Source of the DNA: Candidatus Hermodarchaeota archaeon
GTDB lineage: Archaea; Asgardarchaeota; Heimdallarchaeia; Hodarchaeales; Hodarchaeaceae
Length of the DNA: 32,000 bases
Assembly: GCA_048886185.1 (NCBI GenBank)
Contig: JBHLKY010000003.1
Span: forward strand, 30,001 to 62,000
Direction: 5' to 3'
Below the pieces are notes generated by a model. That model worked only from the letters and a program-made list of their open reading frames with translations. It was not told where the DNA came from and did no database searches. The position numbers were made by a program, and so were the translations under genes. This document shows, piece by piece, positions 12,782-30,653 of this stretch (position 1 is its first letter; every line of letters begins with the position of its first letter).

Positions 12782-12874
12782 GCGCTGATAGTCTAGTCTG
12801 GTTAGGACTCCAGCCTTCCATTCCCATTAAAGAGGAGATAGCTGGCTACCCGGGTTCAAATCCCGGTCGGCGCA
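12782..12874 (+). tRNA. tRNA-Gly(TCC), one 19-nt intron at 37/38 (12821-12839)
   Basis: Acceptor GCGCTGA/TCGGCGC, anticodon stem CCAGC/GCTGG, T-arm CCGGG-TTCAAAT-CCCGG; BHB central helix CUUC/GGAG. Confidence 0.95.
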
Positions 12875-17221: not shown

Positions 17222-17361
17222 TGCTCCGACCGGGATTTTCCGACTACAAACGATCTGTTTGTTTCCTTTGAACCCGGGTCCTTCCGCGTGGATTCAATAT
17301 CGAATTCAGCCAGATTCGGGGCGAAAGCCCGGAATGATGGGCCGAGCTACACTATCGGAGC
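17222..17361 (-). tRNA. tRNA-Glu(TTC), two non-canonical introns: about 43/44 (17282-17315, 34 nt) and 59/60 (17236-17266, 31 nt)
   Basis: Acceptor GCTCCGA/TCGGAGC; T-arm CCGGG-TTCAAA|T-CCCGG. The 75-nt mature form has a C27.A43 mismatch, so the first junction is less certain. Confidence 0.82.
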
Positions 17362-17560
17362 AGATCCTCATGAAATACAGCCCTTTATCGGCAATACAAC
17401 CCCCCTTGCTTCAAATTAAAAAGGTTTGTTAGCAAAAAGATAAACTATGAAACAAGAGCTAAAAGAGTTAAGCAAGATTTTAGGTTTTGTAGAATAGCAA
17501 ATCAAAAACATATTAAATCTGATTAAACCTTGTATCCCTTAACTAGGAACTGAAAAAGAG

Positions 17561-17914
17561 GTGTTCATTGATCTGGTATCGTCCCATCGTCGAAAAAGAC
17601 GGAAAAGGTCTCAGGAGAAACAAGAAATTCGGTTTCTTACTCAAGAAGCGATAACATTTTTTACAGAGGAGAGTCTGAAGATTCGCTTAACTGATCCATT
17701 ACATTCTCAAGAGTTATTCCGTTCAGCTCGAAAAATCGGGAAAAGAAGCCGGTTTCATATTCCACGACAATATCGTTTTTTGTTTTGTCGGTCATGCTGT
17801 TCACCTTTAAGCATCAAAACTGCTAAAATTCGCTTAAATAGTAAAAAACAACAAATTCAATATTTATGTTTGAATTGTAAGAAGGTACACCGGTTTGGAT
17901 ATTTAAAAAAGTAA
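17561..17914 (+). CDS. rnp4: Ribonuclease P protein component 4 (Rpp21)
   Basis: ARKIGKRSRFHIPRQYRFLFCRSC..KIRL..CLNCKKVHRFGY zinc ribbon. Confidence 0.88.
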   Translation: MFIDLVSSHRRKRRKRSQEKQEIRFLTQEAITFFTEESLKIRLTDPLHSQELFRSARKIGKRSRFHIPRQYRFLFCRSCCSPLSIKTAKIRLNSKKQQIQYLCLNCKKVHRFGYLKK

Positions 17915-17931
17915 AATTAGAAGGAATAGGT

Positions 17932-18258
17932 ATGCATGTAACAATTTACACCACATTTGATGATTTAGATGAAGCAAAAAAGTTTTCACGCCTCTTACTA
18001 GAGAGAAAACTTGCAGCTTGTGTGAATTTGATTCAGGGGGTTCATTCGATTTATCGGTGGAAAGGAGAAATTGAAGAAGCAACAGAAGTAATTCTATGGG
18101 GTAAAACTCAAGATTTTTTAGTTGAAAAAATCCAATCCATGATCCAAGAGTCTCATTCCTACAGTTTACCTGCTTTTGTGGTTTATCCAATTCAGACAGG
18201 AAGTAAAGCATATTTAAAATGGATAAGTGATGAAACACAACTAGCTAAACATCAATAG
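17932..18258 (+). CDS. cutA: Divalent-cation tolerance protein CutA
   Basis: LLERKLAACVN, SIYRWKGEIE, HSYSLP motifs. Confidence 0.93.
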   Translation: MHVTIYTTFDDLDEAKKFSRLLLERKLAACVNLIQGVHSIYRWKGEIEEATEVILWGKTQDFLVEKIQSMIQESHSYSLPAFVVYPIQTGSKAYLKWISDETQLAKHQ

Positions 18259-19279
18259 AAACCTTAAATCGAGTATCAAGCTTCTCTGTGGTAATAACAA
18301 CTCCTAATAATTCTTCTATCAGCTTGATATTAGTTTTGGTATGGTTGGATAAATATGGGGTGTAAAAAACACTCGATGTTGAAGCTGTTGCTATAATAGG
18401 TAGAATTTGATCTGCTAAAAACGGATCAATAGTACTTTGACTATTAAGAGTTGTAATATAACGTTCAAAAGCTTTTTTACCCACTGTTTCTGCAGATAGC
18501 TTACGTTCACCTATAAAATCCCCACCAATCACATTATTTTCGGCTTTTGAGAAGACTAAAACTCCTGAACCAGGATTATCTGCTTCAACAGATTCCATTA
18601 CCACTTCGGAATCTATAGACTGTTTTTGCAGGTTTGTGACAATTGTGTTTGCTTGTCTTTCTGCAACTCGCGCTCTTTGAAGATGTTTTGTTTCGAAGGA
18701 TAGAACATTTGCGATTTTTGGCTTTTTAAATACTTCAAGATTCAATCCTTTAAAAGAAGAAGGAGAGTGAATTGTAGCTAAAACTTTTGCTCCTCCCTTA
18801 GGAAAAAACCCATGGCGAAGAATGTTAATCTCAAGATTGTAATTCAATTGACGAAGGATTTCCCAAGTGACATGATTAACATAGGGAATAGTAGGAGCCC
18901 ATTTTCCAAAAGTTGCCCCACCTCGAATCTGTACCTTAAGAGAATGATTCTTGACTCCAAGAATAGCCACCTGAAGAGACTGCAAAATCAATCCAATACT
19001 ACCAGCTGTTGTAACAGAAATCTTCAAATCTGAATTCCAAGAGTTAGCTGGGGTGAAGAAAACTGTTCCTGATCCAATATGATCCCCTTCTAATTCACCA
19101 CCACAAAAATCAGCTAATGCACGAAGTCCCACAAGATGTTGTGTTTGGAGTCCAGGGTTTGGGCGATTTTTGCGGATATCAACAATTTTGACGGGTTCTT
19201 GCATCACAAGAGCAAAGGAGGTCACTAAGCGAAGAATAGATCCTCCCCCTTCCCCTAAACTTCCATCATAAACACGCAA
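18245..19279 (-). CDS. rtcA: RNA 3'-terminal phosphate cyclase
   Basis: DGSLGEGGGSILR, RPNPGLQTQHL, RHGFFPKGG, ADQIL and catalytic HTKTN motif. TTG at 19279 matches the usual N-terminus; the track start 19369 is also possible. Confidence 0.92.
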   Translation of the reverse strand: MRVYDGSLGEGGGSILRLVTSFALVMQEPVKIVDIRKNRPNPGLQTQHLVGLRALADFCGGELEGDHIGSGTVFFTPANSWNSDLKISVTTAGSIGLILQSLQVAILGVKNHSLKVQIRGGATFGKWAPTIPYVNHVTWEILRQLNYNLEINILRHGFFPKGGAKVLATIHSPSSFKGLNLEVFKKPKIANVLSFETKHLQRARVAERQANTIVTNLQKQSIDSEVVMESVEADNPGSGVLVFSKAENNVIGGDFIGERKLSAETVGKKAFERYITTLNSQSTIDPFLADQILPIIATASTSSVFYTPYLSNHTKTNIKLIEELLGVVITTEKLDTRFKVSIDV

Positions 19280-19375
19280 ATGGAGACCCCAAACAAATTC
19301 AGCATGCTGATCAAGGCGACAACGAGGGAGATTATAAGGATTACGGCTTTTCCTATCCTTATACAGCAAAAAGAG

Positions 19376-19537
19376 CTATCCTGCTCTCTCTTTTCTCTTG
19401 GGACGTAGTCTTCTAGAGCGGCATCGACGACATTTCGTCGCACCTGGAGGATTTCGAGCATAGCATTTTCTACATATCGTCATCTCAAGTAATGCTTTTC
19501 GTACAATGTCTCGCTTCTCAGGATCGGTGATTGGCAT
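19376..19537 (-). CDS. rpl40e: 50S ribosomal protein L40e (53 aa, absent from ORF track)
   Basis: My translation: MPITDPEKRDIVRKALLEMTICRKCYARNPPGATKCRRCRSRRLRPKRKERAG. Confidence 0.95.
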   Translation of the reverse strand: MPITDPEKRDIVRKALLEMTICRKCYARNPPGATKCRRCRSRRLRPKRKERAG

Positions 19538-20004
19538 CGTTTTAAGTTCCTTTTCTATAGACCACCTATAATTATAGAATCGAAAGGTAGTTTTTGAAAA
19601 TGGTGATTAAATGTGACTATTTCAAGAGATTTTATAAAAATTTATATTCTTTCTTGTGAAAAGGAAGCCTAATTTACAGGTTTAGAGTAAAAATCAACGC
19701 CTTCTAAATCATAAATGTTTATAATAACCTAAAATCATCATTATCATATAAGAGACAATTCATAATGAACATCAGGCTAGAAATAACGAGAATAATGGTG
19801 ATGAAGCTATCTCGTAAAAACACTATTCAATATAAGAGTGTATTTCAATTCTTCTCTCTATTACTTGCAAGATAAACATGAATTATTTACAAAACGCACC
19901 TCGATGTTTTTTAATAATCTACAGATTGTTTATCCTGCTTCAAAAATAAACTGCTACTGTATATCATCCAATCCTTTTGGAAGGATTGACTTGTTACCCC
20001 CCCG

Positions 20005-20027
20005 CCCCCTCGATTTCGAGTGTAGAA
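20005..20027 (-). promoter_or_regulatory. ORB-like motif (candidate Orc1/Cdc6 binding box)
   Basis: Minus strand TTCTACACTCGAAATCGAGGGGG resembles the archaeal ORB pattern TCCA-nnn-GAAA-nnnn-G-string, inside a 639-bp AT-rich intergenic gap. Only one clear copy, and no cdc6 gene nearby. Confidence 0.3.
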
Positions 20028-20176
20028 TATGAGTTACAACGACAAAAAAGAGGAATAAATCCAAATCGCAACCTGTGGTATGTTTAGTTATCTCCATACT
20101 ATTTCCAGAAAACATTAATAAATGAGAAAAATCCATAGGAGAAATGAAACAATAATTCGGATATGGTGAAACCCCA

Positions 20177-20464
20177 ATGCAGTATTACATGAGTGTATCA
20201 GAGATTCAAGATCGAGTAAGAACATTGATTAATCATTTCACAGGAAGTTATAGTTTGAAATCCCCCTTTTTCAATCCAAGATTGGTGAATTCTCTCCAAA
20301 AAATGGTGGATCCCAACCTTCTAAACAACGAGAAAGTAGCTGAAGAAATTATAACGGCTTTTTTAAATTCTATCATCTTAGCTGGGCAATTGGGCATTGA
20401 TATTGAAACAAAAGTAAATGAGTATCTTATCCAGCTTGAAAGAGAAGCTCTCTTTGCGATGTAG
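20177..20464 (+). CDS. Degenerate MazG-like (all-alpha NTP-PPase fold) small protein
   Basis: SEIQDRV and VAEEIITAFLNSIILAGQLGIDIE resemble the family pattern; acidic metal ligands are largely missing. Confidence 0.5.
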   Translation: MQYYMSVSEIQDRVRTLINHFTGSYSLKSPFFNPRLVNSLQKMVDPNLLNNEKVAEEIITAFLNSIILAGQLGIDIETKVNEYLIQLEREALFAM

Positions 20465-20509
20465 AAGTTAAAGAATAGTATGTTTTGAAAAGATAAGTAT
20501 AGCTTTAGT

Positions 20510-21586
20510 TTAGCCAAAGAGAGCCATAATTGAATCAAGAGTTGAAAAACCTAATACTAGAGATATTAAGACACCTAATACCAAACATCCTAATCCTCCA
20601 AAAATAGGAAGTGGGAGGCCAGGTAAAGCTCTTTCTTTTTTCAAAAACTTGAAAGTATAATACGCACCCACAAAAAGTCCAGTGAGCGCTGTGATGAGAG
20701 GAATTGGAGTAACTAATTCAACGCCTATCACAACAGCAACACTTATCAGCATGCTGAAAAATGCAAAATCACCAAGGCCTATATTTATTAAAGGAGTGGA
20801 ATAGACTGGAAGAGCTGGTAACAAAGGAACTTTCTCATATTCATACCCATTTTGAGAATTCATGGCTTTTTCATATTCCTCAGCAGTTTCCCGGCCGTGG
20901 TCAATAATTCCTTTCAAAGGACCACGAAAAACAGCATAAATGTCATATAATGACAACCCTACTAAGATTAATATAGTAGTAAGGAGACCAAGATGTATAG
21001 CTAACATTGAGCCAATCATAGCACCAAAAAAGATCATCATCAGGTTACGAAACCAGATTCTATCGAAACTCTGGATACCAAATGAGATGATACCTAATAC
21101 TCCTAAAATTATTGCAAAAAGGTATAGTAATGGTATAAAAAGTGTGTTGATCCAACCTCTTATGAGATTGGGTAAATATTTCCACAAGAAGTTGATAACA
21201 TTAAAAGAAATGATTCCCCCATAAAATGCTCCAAAGACAAACCAGCTGAATCCCATCATCGCAGCGAAGAAATAGACCAATAACTGCATGAATCCTTTCT
21301 TTATTATAATTAAGACTACGATCCCACCAATAAAGGCTAATGTAACGTAAAAAATCATATTTAGAATTGCTCCGTAAGCAATTCCACCTGGATCCTCTGG
21401 ATTTTCTGGAATTGGGGAAATATCAGGGCGAGTATAATTTGGGTTATCCTGTTCTATCATTGCGTAGTAATCAAGTGTGAATAATGATAAGACAATAGCA
21501 ATCACAAGGACGAAAACTATCGGCTGAATAAATGCCCTTAACTTAGCTTCGGAGGTTTCATGGCTTTCGGTTGTACTTTCACTCAT
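20510..21586 (-). CDS. Presenilin-family (A22) intramembrane aspartyl protease
   Basis: LYDIYAV (YD), IGLGDF (GxGD) and C-terminal ALPGLP motifs; multi-TM. Confidence 0.9.
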   Translation of the reverse strand: MSESTTESHETSEAKLRAFIQPIVFVLVIAIVLSLFTLDYYAMIEQDNPNYTRPDISPIPENPEDPGGIAYGAILNMIFYVTLAFIGGIVVLIIIKKGFMQLLVYFFAAMMGFSWFVFGAFYGGIISFNVINFLWKYLPNLIRGWINTLFIPLLYLFAIILGVLGIISFGIQSFDRIWFRNLMMIFFGAMIGSMLAIHLGLLTTILILVGLSLYDIYAVFRGPLKGIIDHGRETAEEYEKAMNSQNGYEYEKVPLLPALPVYSTPLINIGLGDFAFFSMLISVAVVIGVELVTPIPLITALTGLFVGAYYTFKFLKKERALPGLPLPIFGGLGCLVLGVLISLVLGFSTLDSIMALFG

Positions 21587-21653
21587 TTACTTTCACGTAA
21601 ACTGTGAACAAAAAGTGAAAATAAAAATACTGGAACGAGAACCATGTATGCAA

Positions 21654-22655
21654 ATGGAAAAACTTGAGAATTTGGGAGAATCGAAGATCATTAATCTCCT
21701 ACAACAATATATTGATGTTTCTACCCTTCTTGGAACCAATGAAGATGCTTACCTGTATAATAATGTCCATCCGTATGTTATTGTGAATGTTGATACGATG
21801 TCGAGGGATTCAGATTTTTTACCACAACAGACGTGGAAACAATTGGGAGTAAAACTAGTAGCAATAACATTTTCGGATCTAGCAGCGAAAGGGGCGACAC
21901 CTAAATTATTCATATCATCGTTAGTCTTAGAAGGATCTATGAAAGAAAACGAACTCAGAGAACTGGTAGCTGCAATCCAAAACACTAGTCATAAATATGG
22001 CGCAAAATTCTTTGGCGGCGATCTGGGCTCTTCAGCCGAAACTGTCTTAACTGGAGTAGGAATAGGCTCTATAGAAACGGGAAAAATCTTAACTAGAAGA
22101 GACGCAAAAAACGGAGACTTAGTCTGCGTTACAGGCCATTTTGGATTGACCTCTATCGGATTGGATTATCTATTATCTCCCATGGCCAACAAACATGATA
22201 TTTTCCCTGACAGCCTTCTTGAACTCAGTAAAACGCGGCTTTACGAGCCCCAACCGAAGCTAAGAGAAGGATTATTACTTAGTGAATATGAAATTGCCTC
22301 ATCTTCGATAGATAGTTCTGATGGATTAGCAATTTCATTACATTGGTTATCTCAGGCTTCCGATACAGGTATTGTCATATATAACCTACCTATCCACCCT
22401 GAAGTAGAACCTCTTCTGGGTTCATTTAATGCAATCTTAGAAACAACAATGTTTGGTGGTGAGGAGTATGAGCTCATTTTTACTGTTCCCCCTTCTAAAT
22501 TAAATAAGTTAGAAAATGTTTTCAACCAAAATAACTGCCAATTCTTTATTATAGGAAAATGTATAGAAGCACAAGGTGTCTTCGTGTCTCAAAATGAGAA
22601 GCTAATCCCTGTACCCATGCGCGGATGGGATTCCTTTCGAAAAAAGGTGTTTTGA
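21654..22655 (+). CDS. thiL: Thiamine-monophosphate kinase
   Basis: LGESKII, EDA, FSDLAAKGATP, GGDL, IDSSDGL, GGEEYELIFT; start is 21654 or 21648. Confidence 0.93.
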   Translation: MEKLENLGESKIINLLQQYIDVSTLLGTNEDAYLYNNVHPYVIVNVDTMSRDSDFLPQQTWKQLGVKLVAITFSDLAAKGATPKLFISSLVLEGSMKENELRELVAAIQNTSHKYGAKFFGGDLGSSAETVLTGVGIGSIETGKILTRRDAKNGDLVCVTGHFGLTSIGLDYLLSPMANKHDIFPDSLLELSKTRLYEPQPKLREGLLLSEYEIASSSIDSSDGLAISLHWLSQASDTGIVIYNLPIHPEVEPLLGSFNAILETTMFGGEEYELIFTVPPSKLNKLENVFNQNNCQFFIIGKCIEAQGVFVSQNEKLIPVPMRGWDSFRKKVF

Positions 22656-22709
22656 AGGTTAAAGTTTAATATAATAGGAAATTCCTTCTGAGATAGAAAA
22701 AAGGGCTCA

Positions 22710-22782
22710 TGCGCCGACTGGGATTTGAACCCAGGTCACCTGTGTGGCAGACAGGAGTCTTACCAGGCTGGACTATCGGCGC
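22710..22782 (-). tRNA. tRNA-Gly(GCC), intronless
   Basis: 73-nt cloverleaf: GCGCCGA/TCGGCGC, CCTGT-CTGCCAC-ACAGG, CTGGG-TTCAAAT-CCCAG. Confidence 0.97.
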
Positions 22783-22976
22783 TAGATAAGGTTGTCAAGT
22801 CAAGGTAATTTATATAATTTCCTTCTTCCATAAACGTCTCCATTATAGGTGGGACTCTATATAATCACCGTTTTCCTATTTGTCATTAATTTTTTCATTA
22901 ATTTTTTCTTTGATCACCCTAAGGCAAAAAGGTGAATAGTGACATTTTTTATCTAAAGGTATAATTTCTTGCTTTA

Positions 22977-23771
22977 CTAATAAATTCTTTTATTCCTTTG
23001 GAGGCTATTCTGAAGTTTAAGTTCTACCCATTTCAAAACTCCCATCATTGTACTAAGTTCACGCCCTGTGACATATCCTCGCGAAATTATATTCGTAAAT
23101 GCTTGTAATGCAACATGCTGTTTTTCAGGATGGTATCCAGTGATTTTAATTACCTTTTCAAAGTAATTCATCAGTAATTGCCTTTCTTTATGAGAAGCTG
23201 CACGATATTTTAGTTTACCTTCAGAATCATTAAGGGATATTTCCTGGAGCTTTTGGTTAAGAAAATACAATATAATAGCGACCGCGTGTGAAATATTCAT
23301 TGAAGAATAAGCCATATGGGTAGGAATAGTAACCAGTAGATCACATAAATCTATTTCTTCATTAGATAATCCTGATTGTTCTCTACCAAATACAATTCCC
23401 AGTTTATTGTACCAAAAATCCTCTTTCCACAACTGTTCTGGGGAAATTGCTACCCTTTTTAAATTATAGTCACTCCCTATTCGAGCTGTTGTGCCAATTA
23501 AGAATTCAAATTCGTCACGTACATCCTGAAGATGCATAGCAAGCTGAGCTTGATTAATGATCACTTCAGCACGGCGGGCTACAATTTTTATCTCTGAATC
23601 TGACAATTCAAGTTTAGGATTTATTAGAAGAAGATTTGAAAAACCAAAGTTCATCATAGCTCTTGCAATATTACCTAAGTTTTGAGGTTTACTTGGTTCG
23701 ACTAGAATAATGTACAAAGAATCCCACTTGAACTTCTTCTTTAAATTATTATTGCGAGAATTATTACTCAT
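22977..23771 (-). CDS. trmJ: SPOUT tRNA C32/U32 2'-O-methyltransferase, TrmJ family
   Basis: LVEPSKPQNLGNIARAMMNFG, VFGREQSGLSNEE, YSSMNISHAV motifs. Confidence 0.88.
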   Translation of the reverse strand: MSNNSRNNNLKKKFKWDSLYIILVEPSKPQNLGNIARAMMNFGFSNLLLINPKLELSDSEIKIVARRAEVIINQAQLAMHLQDVRDEFEFLIGTTARIGSDYNLKRVAISPEQLWKEDFWYNKLGIVFGREQSGLSNEEIDLCDLLVTIPTHMAYSSMNISHAVAIILYFLNQKLQEISLNDSEGKLKYRAASHKERQLLMNYFEKVIKITGYHPEKQHVALQAFTNIISRGYVTGRELSTMMGVLKWVELKLQNSLQRNKRIY

Positions 23772-24059
23772 GAAATCATCTCAACATTGAATGACTTTTT
23801 ATATCCAGTAATGATGAGAATTACATCCTATTCGCTAATAAAAATGGATAATAGGGGTAATGCCATTTAACCTACTCTAAAGACCTATTCTGATCTGATT
23901 AACCTAGATTATGCAATATTGACACATTAATGGTAAAGATATTCTTTTTAACAAAGTATTATTGATTTACTAATCAAGAGTCACACCTTAAAAAAGATAA
24001 ATATTGATGTTCATACTGCGTGTCTTGCCCCCTCGGTGGAAATATTACACCTCTAAAAT

Positions 24060-24222
24060 GCGGGGGTAGCCAAGCTAGGTCAAAGGCGGCATTCATTGGG
24101 CTAGATGATAGCTTAGTATATCATATCATGTCGCGCCGTCCAAAGGCGCTGGACTTAAGATCGCTTTTTGATAAGCAATCCAGTCATATAGATGTACGTG
24201 GGTTCAAATCCCATCCCCCGCA
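24060..24222 (+). tRNA. tRNA-Leu(TAA), two introns: 21/22 (24084-24143, 60 nt) and 37/38 (24160-24177, 18 nt)
   Basis: Acceptor GCGGGGG/CCCCCGC and long variable arm; 85 nt after splicing. Anticodon BHB CUUA/UAAG is perfect; D-loop BHB GGUC/GUCC has outer helix GGCG/CGCC. Confidence 0.88.
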
Positions 24223-24230
24223 TTTTTCTT

Positions 24231-25559
24231 TCAATAGAAATCACGAGAATTTTTTTCTCTTTCCCCGATTAGATAAGTAGACCCAATATCTGTTACCTGG
24301 GCTTTCAAAAACTGTCCGAGTGAAAGATTTCCATCTTCTATCAATATCGGTAAATATGATGGATTTCTACCAATGAATTGCTTGGAGTGTTTTCCAAATT
24401 CATCAATCAGAATTATTCCCTTCCATCCCAGCCATTTTTTCAGTTCTTTTTGAGTGATCGAATGTACTAATTTGGTCAATTCCCTACTACGGCTAGCTTT
24501 GACTTGTGTTGGGATCTTGGGTGAAAACTGTGATGCTAATGTTTCTGGACGATCAGTGTATTTTGAAATATTTACAATTAAAGGTTTAATTTCACGTATA
24601 AGTCTTTTAGTTGCCTCGAAATCGTTTTGAGTCTCTCCAGGAAAACCAGCTATTATATCGGTTGCTAGGACAAATTCATCGACTTTTTGTTGCAATTGAG
24701 AAACGAGGTCAATGAAATATTGACTGGTCTCTTTTCTTCTCATTTTCTCTAGAATTGGGTCAGATCCAGACTGAATCGGTAAATGAAGAAAGGAAAACAC
24801 TTTTGGGTTGCATAATTGCTGGACTAAGGGATCAAAGAAGTTTTTTAATGTATTTGGAGTCATCATTCCTAATCGTATGAAAAAATCTCCTTTTAATTGG
24901 GTAATAGATTTAATTAGATCTGGAATTTGTAATTTAGGTGAAAGATCCCACCCGTAAACGCCTGTATCTTGCGAAGTGAGCCATATTTCTTTACTTCCAT
25001 TTGTTGTTGCAGCCTGTATTTCCGCTATGATTGATTCTTGGGAGCGTGAGCGAACATTGCCCTTAATATTTTTAACAATACAAAAAGCACATGAACCCAA
25101 ACACCCCCGAGCTATCTCGATCGTTGTGATTACTGGATTGTAGCGAAATCGTTCTTCTGTGTAGAGTTGAGACCATACTTGAGGGCTACTTATCTTGATT
25201 TCTTGCACAGACTTACTTTCTAAAAGGTCTTGAATTTGATTCGCAGCTTCTGGGAACAGAATTCTCGCGCGTGGTAAGTTTTTTGTAACCCAATTCCGCA
25301 TAACAACAGGTAAACAGCCAGTTACAATGATTTCTTTAGTCTCTGATAAAGATAAAAGCATACTTTTCATTTTATGCTCTGTATTTTGTTTTACAACGCA
25401 TGTGTTAGCGATGATTACTTCAGCATCTTTAATAGATTTAGTTAGAGGGTATCCATGTCTTTCTAAAATACCGATTATCCCTTCTGCGATGGCCCGATTA
25501 GCACTACAACCATAATTTAGAATATGAATTGATTTTTTGCCCTTTTCTAACGTTTTCAT
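24231..25559 (-). CDS. tRNA t6A37 methylthiotransferase (MiaB-like, archaeal e-MtaB/CDKAL1 type radical SAM)
   Basis: NYGCSAN, ANTCVVK, GCLGSCAFC, TDIIAGFPGET motifs and C-terminal TRAM domain. Confidence 0.88.
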   Translation of the reverse strand: MKTLEKGKKSIHILNYGCSANRAIAEGIIGILERHGYPLTKSIKDAEVIIANTCVVKQNTEHKMKSMLLSLSETKEIIVTGCLPVVMRNWVTKNLPRARILFPEAANQIQDLLESKSVQEIKISSPQVWSQLYTEERFRYNPVITTIEIARGCLGSCAFCIVKNIKGNVRSRSQESIIAEIQAATTNGSKEIWLTSQDTGVYGWDLSPKLQIPDLIKSITQLKGDFFIRLGMMTPNTLKNFFDPLVQQLCNPKVFSFLHLPIQSGSDPILEKMRRKETSQYFIDLVSQLQQKVDEFVLATDIIAGFPGETQNDFEATKRLIREIKPLIVNISKYTDRPETLASQFSPKIPTQVKASRSRELTKLVHSITQKELKKWLGWKGIILIDEFGKHSKQFIGRNPSYLPILIEDGNLSLGQFLKAQVTDIGSTYLIGEREKNSRDFY

Positions 25560-25654
25560 CTTAATATAATCCGAACTACTTTACTCTGCAAAACATTTTT
25601 TTAAGATCTGAGACATTTTTACAGCTGTGTTATTCATTCCTGAAGGTGTAAAAG

Positions 25655-25804
25655 ATTCGAACTGTAACCCTTTATATAGAAGAAGAGTTAATAGATGCCA
25701 TGGCTGAACTTGTTAGGAATGGAAAATATCCAAATCGTTCTGAATTTGTACGTTCAGCCATTCGAGACTTAATTGACAAATATCAAAATAACCATGAATC
25801 CTGA
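25655..25804 (+). CDS. Ribbon-helix-helix (CopG/Arc/MetJ) regulator, 49 aa, apparent ATT start (absent from ORF track)
   Basis: My translation: (I/M)RTVTLYIEEELIDAMAELVRNGKYPNRSEFVRSAIRDLIDKYQNNHES; in-frame TAA two codons upstream. Confidence 0.8.
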   Translation: MRTVTLYIEEELIDAMAELVRNGKYPNRSEFVRSAIRDLIDKYQNNHES

Positions 25805-25839
25805 TTTTTCTTTTTAAGAAGTATTATTATGATACTTCA

Positions 25840-26772
25840 TTAAGTATTTTCTTTAATCCAGTTACTAAGGAGAGGAATAACACTTATTGTTGTAAGTCCA
25901 CTTAAATCGGTCATAATTGTATCAGTTGCGATAGTATGAGTAGGATTGACTTCTTGCATTATTGAAAAGTTCTTAGAAGTATGAACTGCATGAATATAAG
26001 CGAAAATCACATTTTTTGCACCCTTTTCTTTTACTATTTGCGCAGCGCCAATCATGGTCTTTCCAGAGCTGACTATATCGTCAATGATGACAATAGACTG
26101 ATTTTCAATCTCAAAAGCTATATTTTCTAATTTTTGTGATATTTCTCCGGTATCTGGGTTTCTGAACTTTTGAATGGCAGTAAAGAATGGCGTATTTATA
26201 GAATTTGCAAGTTCCTCAGCCAAAAAAAGTGCACCTTCATCTGGAGCAAGACAAATGGCCTCCTGAGGAGACGAAAGAAGGGATTTTAGTTCATTTCCCA
26301 AAACTGGAATTGCCGAGAGGTCGAATGCACGAGACTTGGTGAAAATCTGATTAATCTCTCTCTTACCATAAATATGTGAGTTGAATGTCACATAAGTATT
26401 AACACCTGCAGACTCCAGAGCTGAAGCTAGATAATGATAAGATATGGGTTCCCCCTTCCGAAATTCCTCATCTTGTCTCGAATAGAGAGGATAAGGCATA
26501 ATGCAAGAGATTCGTGCAGGTTTGTATCGTTTCACATTATAGAGTGTCCAGAGAAGTGAAATTAGGTATTGGTTCTTTGGTTGGCATGCCTTTAGCTGCA
26601 TAGCAATGACAGCATGAGCCCCCTTTAGTTGCTCTTCATTTGATATTAACAATCGTGGACAAACTTCCTCATCAGGAAAAGTTCTCTCCTCAACTTCAAT
26701 AAAAACCGACTCTGAAACAGCTTTTGCAATCATTCCTGCGAAATTTGATTTTCCTATCAATGTAACTTTCAT
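25840..26772 (-). CDS. prs: Ribose-phosphate pyrophosphokinase
   Basis: FPDEE, YSRQD, LAPDEGA, IIDDIVSSGKT motifs; ATG at 26772 preferred. Confidence 0.92.
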   Translation of the reverse strand: MKVTLIGKSNFAGMIAKAVSESVFIEVEERTFPDEEVCPRLLISNEEQLKGAHAVIAMQLKACQPKNQYLISLLWTLYNVKRYKPARISCIMPYPLYSRQDEEFRKGEPISYHYLASALESAGVNTYVTFNSHIYGKREINQIFTKSRAFDLSAIPVLGNELKSLLSSPQEAICLAPDEGALFLAEELANSINTPFFTAIQKFRNPDTGEISQKLENIAFEIENQSIVIIDDIVSSGKTMIGAAQIVKEKGAKNVIFAYIHAVHTSKNFSIMQEVNPTHTIATDTIMTDLSGLTTISVIPLLSNWIKENT

Positions 26773-26948
26773 CGTAAAGACTGCTCCTTGAGAATAGTTT
26801 AACAGCTGTTTTTCTAAAATGATATATAAGCCACTTGAGTGGAAAATAATTATTAATATCGAGTGAGTCTTTTTTGATTTGTTTTTCAAGGATTAATCAG
26901 CTTTTTGAATACTATAGTGCCATTGTATCATTTAATAAACACTTAGAG

Positions 26949-28241
26949 ATGAGAGTTTTGAATAAGATTGAGCATATAAAGGATACGCAGAACAATAACA
27001 CTCGTGCATGGTTTACAGGAAATGTACTACTACTAGGATTTGTTTCTTTCTTTGCGGACATTTCTGGGGAAATGATGACTCCAGTATTACCTCTTTTCAT
27101 TGCTGCTTTAGGTGGTTCTAGCATTGTAATTGGATTTATTGGGGGTTTAGGAGATGCAATCGCAAATATTGTGAAAGTTTTTTCTGGATACCTTGCTGAT
27201 AAGACTGGTAGGAGAAAAGGGTTAATAGCGGTAGGTTATGGTGTCCCATTTTTAGCGAAACTGGGGATAGGCTTATCGAACTCTTGGGAGCAGGTGTTAG
27301 TCTTAAAACCAACTGAAAGATTGGGAAAAGGAATTCGAGGTGCACCCCGCGACTCCCTACTAGCTGATTCTATATCATTAGAAATGAGAGGAAAGGCTTT
27401 CGGATTTCATAGAATGATGGACACCGCAGGAGCAATTATTGGATCATTTCTTGCGTTAATAATTGCTTTTTTCTTCTTTAATGTTTTAATTAGTGAACTT
27501 GAAGTTCTCAAAATCATTATCATCATTTCTGCGTTTATATCGCTACTTGCTGTTATTCCGATATTTTTCCTATCAGAATCAACAGGTATCATTCCTGAGG
27601 AAGAGAGGCATAAGGGAAGTTTGCTTCAAAATATCAGGGAGTTACCTAAAAGTTATTACAAGTTCTTAATAGTCTCCATTATCTTTGGGTTGGGTAATTT
27701 TACTATTCTTCTTTTCATCCTCCATTCTAAAACTGTTGTTTTAGGAATTGATGAGACAGCTCCAGCTATCATTCTGATAACCGTTCCAATAATCATTTTC
27801 ATTTGGTTTAATATTATATATACAGTTTTATCCATTCCCTTTGGAAGTTGGTCTGATAAATATGGACGAAAGCCTGTTTTTGCTATTGGTTTAACTCTTT
27901 TTGCCATTACATGTTTTGGTTTCCTCTTTACAACAAATTTTATACTTCTTTTCTTATTCTTTGGAATATATGGTGCTTTTAATGCAGCAACAGATGGTAT
28001 TCAGAAAGCATTTGCAGTTGATTTACTTCCTCAAGATCTTAAAGGGACGGGACTAGGGTTATTACAGACTCTGGTGGGATTTGCCGGAATCATAGGGGGA
28101 GTGATTGCTGGATACTTATATGATTTAGAAGTTAATTTTGCATTCATGTATGGAGGGATTATGACAATAGTTGCACTATTATTACTATTAATAATAAAAT
28201 TACCTTCCTATGAGAGCACGACACAACAGACTCAGATTTGA
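26949..28241 (+). CDS. Major facilitator superfamily transporter
   Basis: GYLADKTGRRK and WSDKYGRKP MFS loop motifs, GKGIRGAPRD; about 12 TM; ATG at 26949. Confidence 0.92.
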   Translation: MRVLNKIEHIKDTQNNNTRAWFTGNVLLLGFVSFFADISGEMMTPVLPLFIAALGGSSIVIGFIGGLGDAIANIVKVFSGYLADKTGRRKGLIAVGYGVPFLAKLGIGLSNSWEQVLVLKPTERLGKGIRGAPRDSLLADSISLEMRGKAFGFHRMMDTAGAIIGSFLALIIAFFFFNVLISELEVLKIIIIISAFISLLAVIPIFFLSESTGIIPEEERHKGSLLQNIRELPKSYYKFLIVSIIFGLGNFTILLFILHSKTVVLGIDETAPAIILITVPIIIFIWFNIIYTVLSIPFGSWSDKYGRKPVFAIGLTLFAITCFGFLFTTNFILLFLFFGIYGAFNAATDGIQKAFAVDLLPQDLKGTGLGLLQTLVGFAGIIGGVIAGYLYDLEVNFAFMYGGIMTIVALLLLLIIKLPSYESTTQQTQI

Positions 28242-28345
28242 TACCAACAAAACTAGAGATTAAAACACTTCTCTACTCTGAAAATGCATTAAATCAGAGT
28301 AATATATATAGTCTTAAATTTACTTTCTAAAGTTCATAATTAGAA

Positions 28346-28450
28346 CGGGCGCAGAGGGATTTGAACCCCCGACCAACAGGTATCTTTAGGTTAAATATAG
28401 AAACTTAATCATTAAAAGCCTGTCGCTCTACCTGGCTGAGCTATGCGCCC
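28346..28450 (-). tRNA. tRNA-Lys(TTT), one 31-nt intron at 37/38 (28382-28412)
   Basis: GGGCGCA/TGCGCCC, ACAGG/CCTGT; perfect BHB central helix CUUU/AAAG. Confidence 0.95.
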
Positions 28451-28459
28451 TTAGGTGTC

Positions 28460-28567
28460 TGGCGCCCCGGTCGGGATTTGAACCCGAGTCGGATGGGATC
28501 AGCAGACTATCAGGCTTGATACACCTTTGACAGCCATCAATGCTAGGCCAGACTACACCACCGGGGC
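28460..28567 (-). tRNA. tRNA-Asp(GTC), one 30-nt intron at 37/38 (28498-28527); CCA encoded
   Basis: GCCCCGG/CCGGGGC, GATGG/CCATC, TCGGG-TTCAAAT-CCCGA; relaxed BHB with 3 of 4 central pairs. Confidence 0.95.
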
Positions 28568-28766
28568 TATATTTGAAATAAAGGCCTCTATTACCTTTTT
28601 GTTAAATATGCCTTCAAGTCTGTCCCTTCTTTCTCAATTTTTTAAATTAATCCTCTCTTAAAGATATTCAACATCTAGTTCCTGCATAACCTTAAAATCC
28701 TAGACACAATGCAAGGAAAATTGCTAGATACCCCTTCGTGTAGGGTCTTATCCCCGAATCATATGT

Positions 28767-28987
28767 GCTGGGGTGGCTTAAATGGTAATAACAATATTAT
28801 CATGGCGATGCCTGGTATAATCATACTGTCTATAGTCAGAATGCCGATAGCGCGGGACTCATAATCTGAGATGAATACTCATAACTTTCCAAGGGCAAGA
28901 ATCGCGCTTTCAGACGAGACATCCCGAAGTCGGGGGTTCAAAATAAGGTAAATTGCGATTTACTTTTTGAAAATCCCCTCCCCAGCA
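28767..28987 (+). tRNA. tRNA-Met(CAT), elongator-like, four introns: 14/15 (28781-28809), 22/23 (28819-28848), 37/38 (28864-28920), 59/60 (28943-28973)
   Basis: Removal gives a 74-nt cloverleaf GCTGGGGTGGCTTAGCCTGGTATAGCGCGGGACTCATAATCCCGAAGTCGGGGGTTCAAATCCCCTCCCCAGCA; all four junctions fold as BHB-type motifs. Confidence 0.87.
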
Positions 28988-29085
28988 TCTATTCGACTTC
29001 CCTTAGCATAAACAGATGTATATTTGCAGCACAACTCAATTAAGACCAATCACGTTCAGAATTGATATGTAAAGAAAAGCCCACT

Positions 29086-29225
29086 GCTCCGATAGTGTAG
29101 CTCGGCCCATCATTCAGGGCTCTCAATGAAGTCCACTAGATATGGGGCTCTCAGGAGTTCCCCTGTGACCCGGGTTCAAAGGAAACAAACAGGCCGTTTG
29201 TAGTCGGAAAATCCCGGTCGGAGCA
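29086..29225 (+). tRNA. tRNA-Glu(CTC), two introns: 37/38 (29126-29159, 34 nt) and 59/60 (29181-29211, 31 nt)
   Basis: GCTCCGA/TCGGAGC, CAGGG/CCCTG; anticodon BHB CUCU/GGAG; 75 nt mature. Confidence 0.92.
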
Positions 29226-29288: not shown

Positions 29289-30653
29289 TCAACCAAATAA
29301 TCCCTCCATCCCTGGCGGGATTCCTCCTGGAGGAGCTCCTCGGCGACCCCGTATCTTTCGCATCATTTTTAGCGACTTCGCAGCCTGGTTAAATTGATTT
29401 AAGAGTAGTTTAACTTCTTGAGGTGAAGTACCTGACCCCTTGGCTATTCTCTGGATACGCTTGCCTTTGATTATCCGAGAATTATCTAATTCTTCGTCAG
29501 TCATTGAATTACAGATTGCAATGAATCGTTTCATGTTTTTTTGGCTTTCTGCTTCTAACATGGGCTGATTTCCAGTCAATGCACTGACACCAGGTATTTT
29601 TGAAACTATTTTTCCTATCGAAGACTGTTTACTTGCATTTTCTATTTGTATTTTGAAATGTCGTAAGGTTAATTTTCCTTTTTTAAGGGCATCACGAAGT
29701 TCTGCTGTGTCTTCTTCATCAAAAGCTTCATTTACACTTTGCAATAATCCCTCGATATCTCCCATACCCAAAAGAGAACCCACAAACCGTGTTGGATTAA
29801 ATTCCTCTAAGTCTTGAATCCTTTCCCCATCACCGTAGAATCGTATTTTTGCTCCTGTTATTGCGACAGCAGAGACAGCTCCTCCACCTTTAGCGGATCC
29901 ATCCATCTTTGTTAAAATAATTGACCCAATGGGTGTTGATCGGTTAAAAGCATCAGCTTGGGCTTGAGCTTGCTGCCCTATCGTCGCATCAACTACAAGA
30001 ATTATCTCTGTTGGTTTTGCAATCTTTGAAATATCCTGCATTTCTTTTAATAAGGCTTTTTCCTCTTTATGTCGGCCAGCAGTATCTATTAAAATGAGAT
30101 TAATACTTTTTTTCTCCGTAAAGTATTTTAATCCGTTTTTGATGACTTTAGAGGAATTTTTCTCTTTTTCATCTCCAAACACTTCAACATTAATAGGTGC
30201 AAGATATTGTTGGAGCTGAGCTAAAGCACCTGGTCTAAATGTGTCTCCTCCTATGACACCGACATTGTATCCTCTTTTTTGGAAATAATTCGCAGTTTTT
30301 CCAATAGATGTTGTTTTACCTGATCCTTGTATGCCAATAAACATTAAAATTGATTTCTCAGTTGGATTTAGTCGTAATGGAGCATATTGTTTGCCTAATA
30401 GTTTTGAAAGTTCATCATAAATCACTTTTAGAGTGTAATCTTTCCGACTAACGGCCATGGGAATGATGTCTTTGAGTGCTCTTTTACGGACTTCTTCAGT
30501 TACATTAAGTACTAAATCAAGGTTAACATCAGCTGCAAGAAGAGCATTTTCTAAATCTTGAATAAGTTCATTGATCAATTTTTCGTCAACAATCGGTGCT
30601 CCACGGATTTTCATGATTGTTTTCCGTAATGATGAGCCTAAAGAATCAAGCAT
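29289..30653 (-). CDS. srp54: Signal recognition particle 54 kDa protein
   Basis: GIQGSGKTT, DTFRPGA, DTAGRH, TKMDGSAKGGGA motifs and M domain RIQRIAKGSG. Confidence 0.97.
   Translation of the reverse strand: MLDSLGSSLRKTIMKIRGAPIVDEKLINELIQDLENALLAADVNLDLVLNVTEEVRKRALKDIIPMAVSRKDYTLKVIYDELSKLLGKQYAPLRLNPTEKSILMFIGIQGSGKTTSIGKTANYFQKRGYNVGVIGGDTFRPGALAQLQQYLAPINVEVFGDEKEKNSSKVIKNGLKYFTEKKSINLILIDTAGRHKEEKALLKEMQDISKIAKPTEIILVVDATIGQQAQAQADAFNRSTPIGSIILTKMDGSAKGGGAVSAVAITGAKIRFYGDGERIQDLEEFNPTRFVGSLLGMGDIEGLLQSVNEAFDEEDTAELRDALKKGKLTLRHFKIQIENASKQSSIGKIVSKIPGVSALTGNQPMLEAESQKNMKRFIAICNSMTDEELDNSRIIKGKRIQRIAKGSGTSPQEVKLLLNQFNQAAKSLKMMRKIRGRRGAPPGGIPPGMEGLFG

Follow-up and report, generated by a model that had tools for sequence, protein, structure and literature searches.

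Introduction

Copies of tRNA genes, introns included, are known to evolve in concert by intergenic gene conversion in yeasts (PMC4090602) and in primates and flies (PMC4981973), and in the Thermoproteales very similar introns occupy the same position in several tRNA genes of a single genome (PMC4090602, PMC4033280). Heavy intron loads have also been published for the tRNA genes of Asgard archaea (PMC11291895; preprint 10.64898/2026.10.13.758758). Asgard archaea carry unusually many tRNA introns, whose gain and loss are unsettled: in the recent Asgard census (preprint 10.64898/2026.10.13.758758), how introns arrive stays open, and conversion between isoacceptor genes is not among the routes tested. 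Here, we describe a 32,000-nt stretch of DNA from a member of the Hodarchaeales (Candidatus Hermodarchaeota archaeon, assembly GCA_048886185.1, contig JBHLKY010000003.1, positions 30,001 to 62,000), hereafter called the window, whose numbering is used throughout. It contains two tRNA-Glu genes in inverted orientation, tRNA-Glu(UUC) (gene A) and tRNA-Glu(CUC) (gene B), and each of them carries a near-identical 31-nt intron in the T loop, between nucleotides 59 and 60. We compared the two genes with their counterparts in related genomes, and found that the T-loop introns pair by genome and not by gene.

Results

Two tRNA-Glu genes with near-identical T-loop introns

The window belongs to a metagenome-assembled genome (MAG) of an Asgard archaeon, with an assembly of 4.84 Mb (G000); the genomes used for comparison are designated by other G numbers. 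Once the introns are taken out, A and B are 75 nt long each, regain the canonical cloverleaf and are called by ARAGORN as tRNA-Glu(ttc) and tRNA-Glu(ctc), respectively. In the raw window, neither ARAGORN nor Rfam detects the unspliced forms of A, B and tRNA-Met, because of their T-loop introns. Full-length orthologues of A (140 nt) are present at the syntenic site in 8 congeners, with 85-93% identity, and orthologues of B adjoin SRP54 (29289-30653 in the window) in 11 congeners.

A previous reading of the window without database searches (the sequence-only reading) had reported near-identical 31-mers in the two genes, on opposite strands and with two differences in the loop. This is exactly what we observed: the only differences are two adjacent loop bases, AT in A and GC in B. 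On the basis of 100 shuffles, the number of matches like this pair expected by chance is zero. Furthermore, a BLAST search on the whole 4.84-Mb assembly retrieved no third copy of the intron, the best other match being 13 nt long.

The same reading was also right about the 5' ends and the T-arm flanks: A and B are identical over 30 nt at the 5' end and 31 nt at the 3' end, giving exact common runs of 32 and 34 nt when the adjacent flank bases are included. Outside the gene bounds, the flanks are unrelated except for 2-3 bases. The identical T-rich trailers (3-9 nt) that follow the two genes were considered as a possible extension of the shared tract and rejected as uninformative, as such runs are expected at terminators.

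The other intron of each gene is unlike in position and sequence, as previously noted, lying at 44/45 in A and at 37/38 in B. The first intron of A could be placed neither by hand nor by a scripted scan for the bulge-helix-bulge (BHB) motif, the motif alone being insufficient; its junction (CCCGAA/GAC) was fixed by the UUC gene of G006 (L076), which is intronless at that site. For the first intron of B, the scripted scan returned a perfect 4-bp central helix (4/4), an outer helix of 4/4 and an inner helix of 3/4.

The T-loop introns group by genome

The distances among introns were calculated on the eight genomes having alignable 31-nt T-loop introns in both A and B. Inside the genomes, the Hamming distance between the A and B introns was 2, 2, 4, 4, 2, 1, 2 and 3 of 31 positions (mean 2.5; n = 8), whereas between genomes the mean distances were 10.0 (A-A), 9.3 (B-B) and 9.8 (A-B). 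The intron nearest to each A was the B intron of its own genome, with one tie (n = 8). When A and B introns were re-paired at random, a fraction of 1e-5 of the 100,000 draws was as low in summed distance as the true pairing. Coherently, in the maximum likelihood (ML) tree of the introns the A and B labels interleave fully, with the maximum of 8 label changes, and a tree in which all B introns are forced into one clade was rejected (71.7 log-likelihood units worse, p-AU 1e-50).

The T-loop intron groups follow the species tree inferred from SRP54, the gene next to B. The sequence-only reading had considered that the intron might be as conserved across relatives as the exons are, which would have indicated old vertical inheritance: we found the exons to be invariant across relatives and the T-loop intron to differ at 6-17 of 31 positions between species. 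That reading had also suggested a recent transfer of the intron. A new insertion does not fit, since homologous 59/60 introns are present in both genes across the clade, among species whose SRP54 proteins are 12-18% different from that of G000; only the latest homogenisation is recent.

The homogenised tract is bounded, and the comparison shows its limits. The neighbouring sequence follows orthology: the anticodon arms and the first introns are gene-specific, and the flanks are gene-specific and syntenic. Between species the flanking DNA is about 75% identical, and the flanks of A are unrelated to those of B. When G000 is compared to G017, the first intron of A differs at 2/34 positions and the T-loop intron of the same gene at 8/31. 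Across species in general, the first intron of A is much better kept than the T-loop intron, and its conserved bases lie mostly in predicted splice-site helices.

In G006 (Candidatus Hodarchaeum mangrovi), both genes carry a 29-nt T-loop intron that cannot be aligned with the others, with 1 difference between the two copies. In that lineage, therefore, an intron variant spread between the copies.

As a control we used the tRNA-Thr(UGU)/tRNA-Thr(CGU) pair of G000, which is unlinked, on different contigs, and has near-identical exons and a homologous 31-nt T-loop intron. The T-loop introns of this pair show 7 differences within G000, against 3-18 to other genomes, and are not homogenised. Thus, the constraints of splicing, even combined with identical exons, are not enough to make introns identical, and the tRNA-Glu pattern needs exchange between copies. 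Orthologues of tRNA-Thr(UGU), with 88-94% identity over the whole gene, occur in most of the genus.

Predicted structure and splicing of the T-loop intron

In the predicted junction, the T stem forms the outer helix, a 6-9-bp hairpin of the intron forms the inner helix, and two 3-nt bulges contain the cut sites. The predicted central helix pairs U54-U55-C56 with G-A-A near the 3' end of the intron, as UUC(A)/(G)GAA. In G000 it consists of 3 pairs plus an A.G mismatch, and a fourth pair (A-U) is present in 3/18 sequences. As judged from the sequence, the bulges and the outer helix agree with a strict BHB (two 3-nt bulges and a 4-bp helix), but with this central helix the junction fits a relaxed motif and not the strict one. 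The structure is conserved: on the 18 aligned sequences, 89.5% of the cells are paired, and sliding the partners lowers this figure to 21-57%. Compensatory changes are seen at three pairs.

The predicted cuts fall after A59 and before U60, and we infer that the intron is actually spliced there. G000 encodes two EndA paralogues, 206 and 212 aa long and sharing 28% identity, each with the domains PF02778 and PF01974. Two divergent paralogues are in keeping with a broad-specificity endonuclease of the two-subunit type, which accepts relaxed motifs, and the tRNA splicing endonuclease of this archaeon is probably of the (alpha-beta)2 type.

Probable gene conversion and alternative explanations

We consider it highly probable that A and B evolve in concert, gene conversion between their 3' halves keeping the T-loop introns near-identical. 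Conversion between isoacceptors was one of the possibilities raised by the sequence-only reading, and the cross-species comparison bears it out, as the introns pair by genome. A and B would be old paralogues, isoacceptor genes each with a BHB-type T-loop intron. At the DNA level, we infer that the 3' part of one inverted gene is repeatedly overwritten with that of the other by non-reciprocal homologous recombination. The tract concerned would begin in the variable loop and reach the 3' end, covering about 60 nt with the intron; its T-arm and acceptor exons are identical in A and B. Such repeated copying would leave the intron near-identical inside each genome and drifting between species. Presumably because selection maintains two anticodons, the tract would not reach the anticodon arm or the first intron. 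At the RNA level, the hairpin, the UUC(A)/(G)GAA helix and the two 3-nt bulges would make up the relaxed BHB, at which the endonuclease would cut before a ligase joins the exons.

Several points weigh against gene conversion, or limit it. The contigs of the source runs, the material examined and one from which rare variants are dropped, showed neither a recombination intermediate nor a chimeric allele. In G010, G012, G016, G001 and G005 the intron is present in one gene only, despite identical T-arm exons; therefore, conversion is neither constant nor always able to carry a 31-nt heterology. In the single-contig genome G015 (CP070760; Glu loci L004 and L038), the two genes are 114 kb apart and their introns are 1 base different, and thus close linkage is not required. 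In this genome the synteny beside B is interrupted inside SRP54, about 340 nt in, and not within a tRNA gene, which may reflect a rearrangement or an assembly join. Moreover, the statistics of the pairing and of the tree overstate independence, being based on 31 informative columns from related species, and splicing at 59/60 is a prediction.

Among the alternatives, the one that survives best, improbable as it is, is that a mobile intron was freshly transferred into both tRNA-Glu genes in each lineage, by transposition of the Thermoproteales type. Near-identical introns at the same position of different tRNA genes are indeed the signature used in that group (PMC4090602, PMC4033280), and the different intron sequence found in both genes of G006 could be read in the same way. 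However, the 4.84-Mb assembly of G000 holds no other copy, and its other nine 59/60 introns differ in sequence. The hosts are only two, isoacceptors with identical flanking exons, the position of the intron never varies, and the intron variants follow the species tree. Furthermore, the Asgard census found almost no intron families shared across tRNA types (preprint 10.64898/2026.10.13.758758).

We judge it very unlikely that A and B derive from an ancient duplication without exchange, with selection on sequence or structure as the sole reason for the likeness of their introns. The sequence-only reading had proposed strong structural selection, and part of this proposal stands: the hairpin and the UUC/GAA splice helix are conserved, compensatory changes are present, and all the 59/60 introns of G000 share the 29-32-nt layout with the GAAA ending. 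Selection does not explain, however, the identity at positions that vary freely. Loop and unpaired bases are included among the 6-17 differences found between species, compared to 1-4 within genomes, and the tRNA-Thr pair is under the same constraints without being homogenised.

Still less probable, as the main process of exchange, is reciprocal crossing-over between the inverted repeats, with flip-flop inversion of the 11.7 kb between the genes. The inverted orientation and the exact common runs would allow it, and heteroduplex repair during crossovers would homogenise the copies too. The sequence-only reading had indeed anticipated that the inverted pair could invert the segment, but one orientation was found in 8/8 relatives examined, with no fixed inversion: in G010, G007 and G008 the comparison covered the full stretch between the genes, about 12 kb, together with its flanks and showed collinearity throughout; in G003, G012, G014, G015 and G017 the two flanks of A and the two of B are collinear as well. 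In addition, no recombinase domain is encoded in the 11.7-kb segment.

Finally, an assembly artefact, with one copy chimeric or the result of a collapsed repeat as the sequence-only reading had feared, can be set aside: although the Logan contigs break at shared 30-mers at both gene ends, so that short k-mer graphs cannot link the gene bodies to their flanks, both bodies were recovered in the contigs of four DNA runs (probable source samples), as separate 139-nt contigs in X1 and X2, the two copies differ at 2 bases, and A and B show the same architecture, with the same flanks on both sides, in the assemblies of eight other species of the genus, three of which are single-contig genomes.

Gain, loss and replacement of the intron

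In G010 and G012, B is without the T-loop intron, which is exactly absent, and A retains it. Since G014 and G017, to which G010 is sister, both have the intron in B, exact loss is the simpler reading. Among more distant congeners, the intron is present in A only in G016, G001 and G005, and in B only, along with an altered T stem, in G002, G004 and G013. In G011 both genes have unrelated introns, and the T stems differ. Homogenisation thus accompanies identical T-arm exons, yet it is not constant.

We tentatively propose that conversion between isoacceptor genes could be a DNA-level route by which non-canonical introns are spread, replaced or exactly removed in the sister gene in Asgard archaea. 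We regard this as a possibility somewhat less likely to hold than to fail, and raise it because of G006, with a different intron in both genes, and of G010 and G012, with exact loss in one gene.

The tRNA-Gly(UCC) gene of the window (12782-12874) lacks an intron in the T loop and is identical to spliced tRNA-Glu over 22 nt of the T arm. It is conceivable, as a speculation, that this gene served as the template for exact intron removal by ectopic conversion.

Other tRNA introns and the intervening segment

Introns of 29-32 nt at the 59/60 site were found in at least 10 tRNA genes of G000. This count was obtained with tightened criteria, a permissive T-arm scan having returned about 1000 false candidates. 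All these introns consist of a hairpin followed by GAAA and one base, and their sequences all differ: their equal length is a design constraint, not a sign of shared descent. The one in tRNA-Met, already recognised in the sequence-only reading as a third 59/60 intron of equal length and different sequence, is listed with the other features in Table 1.

Outside G000, the tRNA-Glu(UUC) gene of G019 (L048:1417-1612) is 196 nt long, a length that implies a pair of introns in the D region and single ones in the variable loop and the T loop, four in all. The same T arm, combined with an unrelated intron of 25-38 nt at 59/60, was also observed in tRNA-Glu genes at L057, L061, L067, L068 and L073. These loci belong to Micrarchaeota MAGs, to a MAG labelled Methanosarcinales and, for L067, to an unclassified archaeal MAG. 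The 59/60 site of tRNA-Glu has apparently been put to use repeatedly.

In a further tRNA gene of the window (28346-28450, minus strand), 47 nt of the intron region (28376-28424) are replaced by 16 other letters in a metagenome contig. This variant contig was found in two metagenome runs, with a depth of about 8, and looks like an intron-length variant of a co-occurring strain or relative.

The segment between A and B carries housekeeping and RNA-processing genes. More precisely, it encodes (17561-28241) an Rpp21-like RNase P subunit (just under the Pfam cut-off), the RNA 3'-phosphate cyclase RtcA, a presenilin-like protein, a SpoU-family methylase, a MiaB-like radical-SAM methylthiotransferase, a ribose-phosphate pyrophosphokinase-like protein and an MFS transporter.

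Table 1. Coordinates of the tRNA genes, their introns and the segment between the inverted pair. Positions refer to the window, except for the two tRNA-Thr genes, which are given on their contigs in G000 (C14 and C8).
Feature	Position	Strand	Remarks
tRNA-Glu(UUC), gene A; 140 nt, two introns	17222-17361	-	ARAGORN on spliced sequence; syntenic 140-nt orthologues
T-loop intron of A, 31 nt, 59/60	17236-17266	-	predicted relaxed BHB; structure on 18 sequences
First intron of A, 34 nt, 44/45 (variable loop)	17281-17314	-	predicted relaxed BHB; junction from the G006 UUC gene
Segment between the inverted gene pair, 11.7 kb	17362-29085		housekeeping and RNA-processing genes
tRNA-Met(CAU) 59/60 intron, 31 nt, unrelated	28943-28973 (gene 28767-28986)	+	hairpin then GAAAA; other sequence
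tRNA-Glu(CUC), gene B; 140 nt, two introns	29086-29225	+	ARAGORN on spliced sequence; orthologues adjoining SRP54
First intron of B, 34 nt, canonical 37/38 site	29126-29159	+	BHB scan
T-loop intron of B, 31 nt, 59/60	29181-29211	+	2 differences from the A copy
tRNA-Thr(UGU) in G000 (L088)	C14:61692-61795		
tRNA-Thr(CGU) in G000 (L089)	C8:90748-90884		

Discussion

The locus provides a clean case, replicated in nine species, in which recombination keeps a T-loop intron alike in two genes; the intron is sometimes replaced in both genes and sometimes exactly lost from one. The case separates the share of selection, namely the splice motif and the hairpin, from the share of recombination, namely everything else. 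Furthermore, the comparison between within-genome and between-genome intron similarity is a simple test that can be applied to all isoacceptor pairs. The process is already known, and the locus reveals neither a new kind of element nor a new mechanism; what is new is to find this process in Asgard archaea and acting on a T-loop intron.

The closest parallel is the concerted evolution of tRNA genes described in yeasts, primates and flies. As there, copies and introns cluster by genome, and highly similar tRNA genes would exchange sequence non-reciprocally. Unlike there, the host is an archaeon, the partners are two different isoacceptors and only the 3' part is involved, the anticodon arm and the first intron remaining distinct. 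In the Thermoproteales, the similar introns reside in different tRNA species with unrelated gene bodies, whereas the intron described here resides in isoacceptor genes, flanked on either side by identical exons, and has no further copy in the assembly.

With respect to the published Asgard tRNA introns, the locus shares the short hairpin intron, the non-canonical site, the relaxed BHB, the presence of several introns per gene and the two EndA paralogues. It differs in the host, which belongs to the Hodarchaeales, while the accounts consulted place such introns mainly in Atabeyarchaeia and Jordiarchaeia (Freyarchaeia) and not in this order. Compared to those accounts, the interest here is that the two genes of an isoacceptor pair have one and the same 59/60 intron within a genome.

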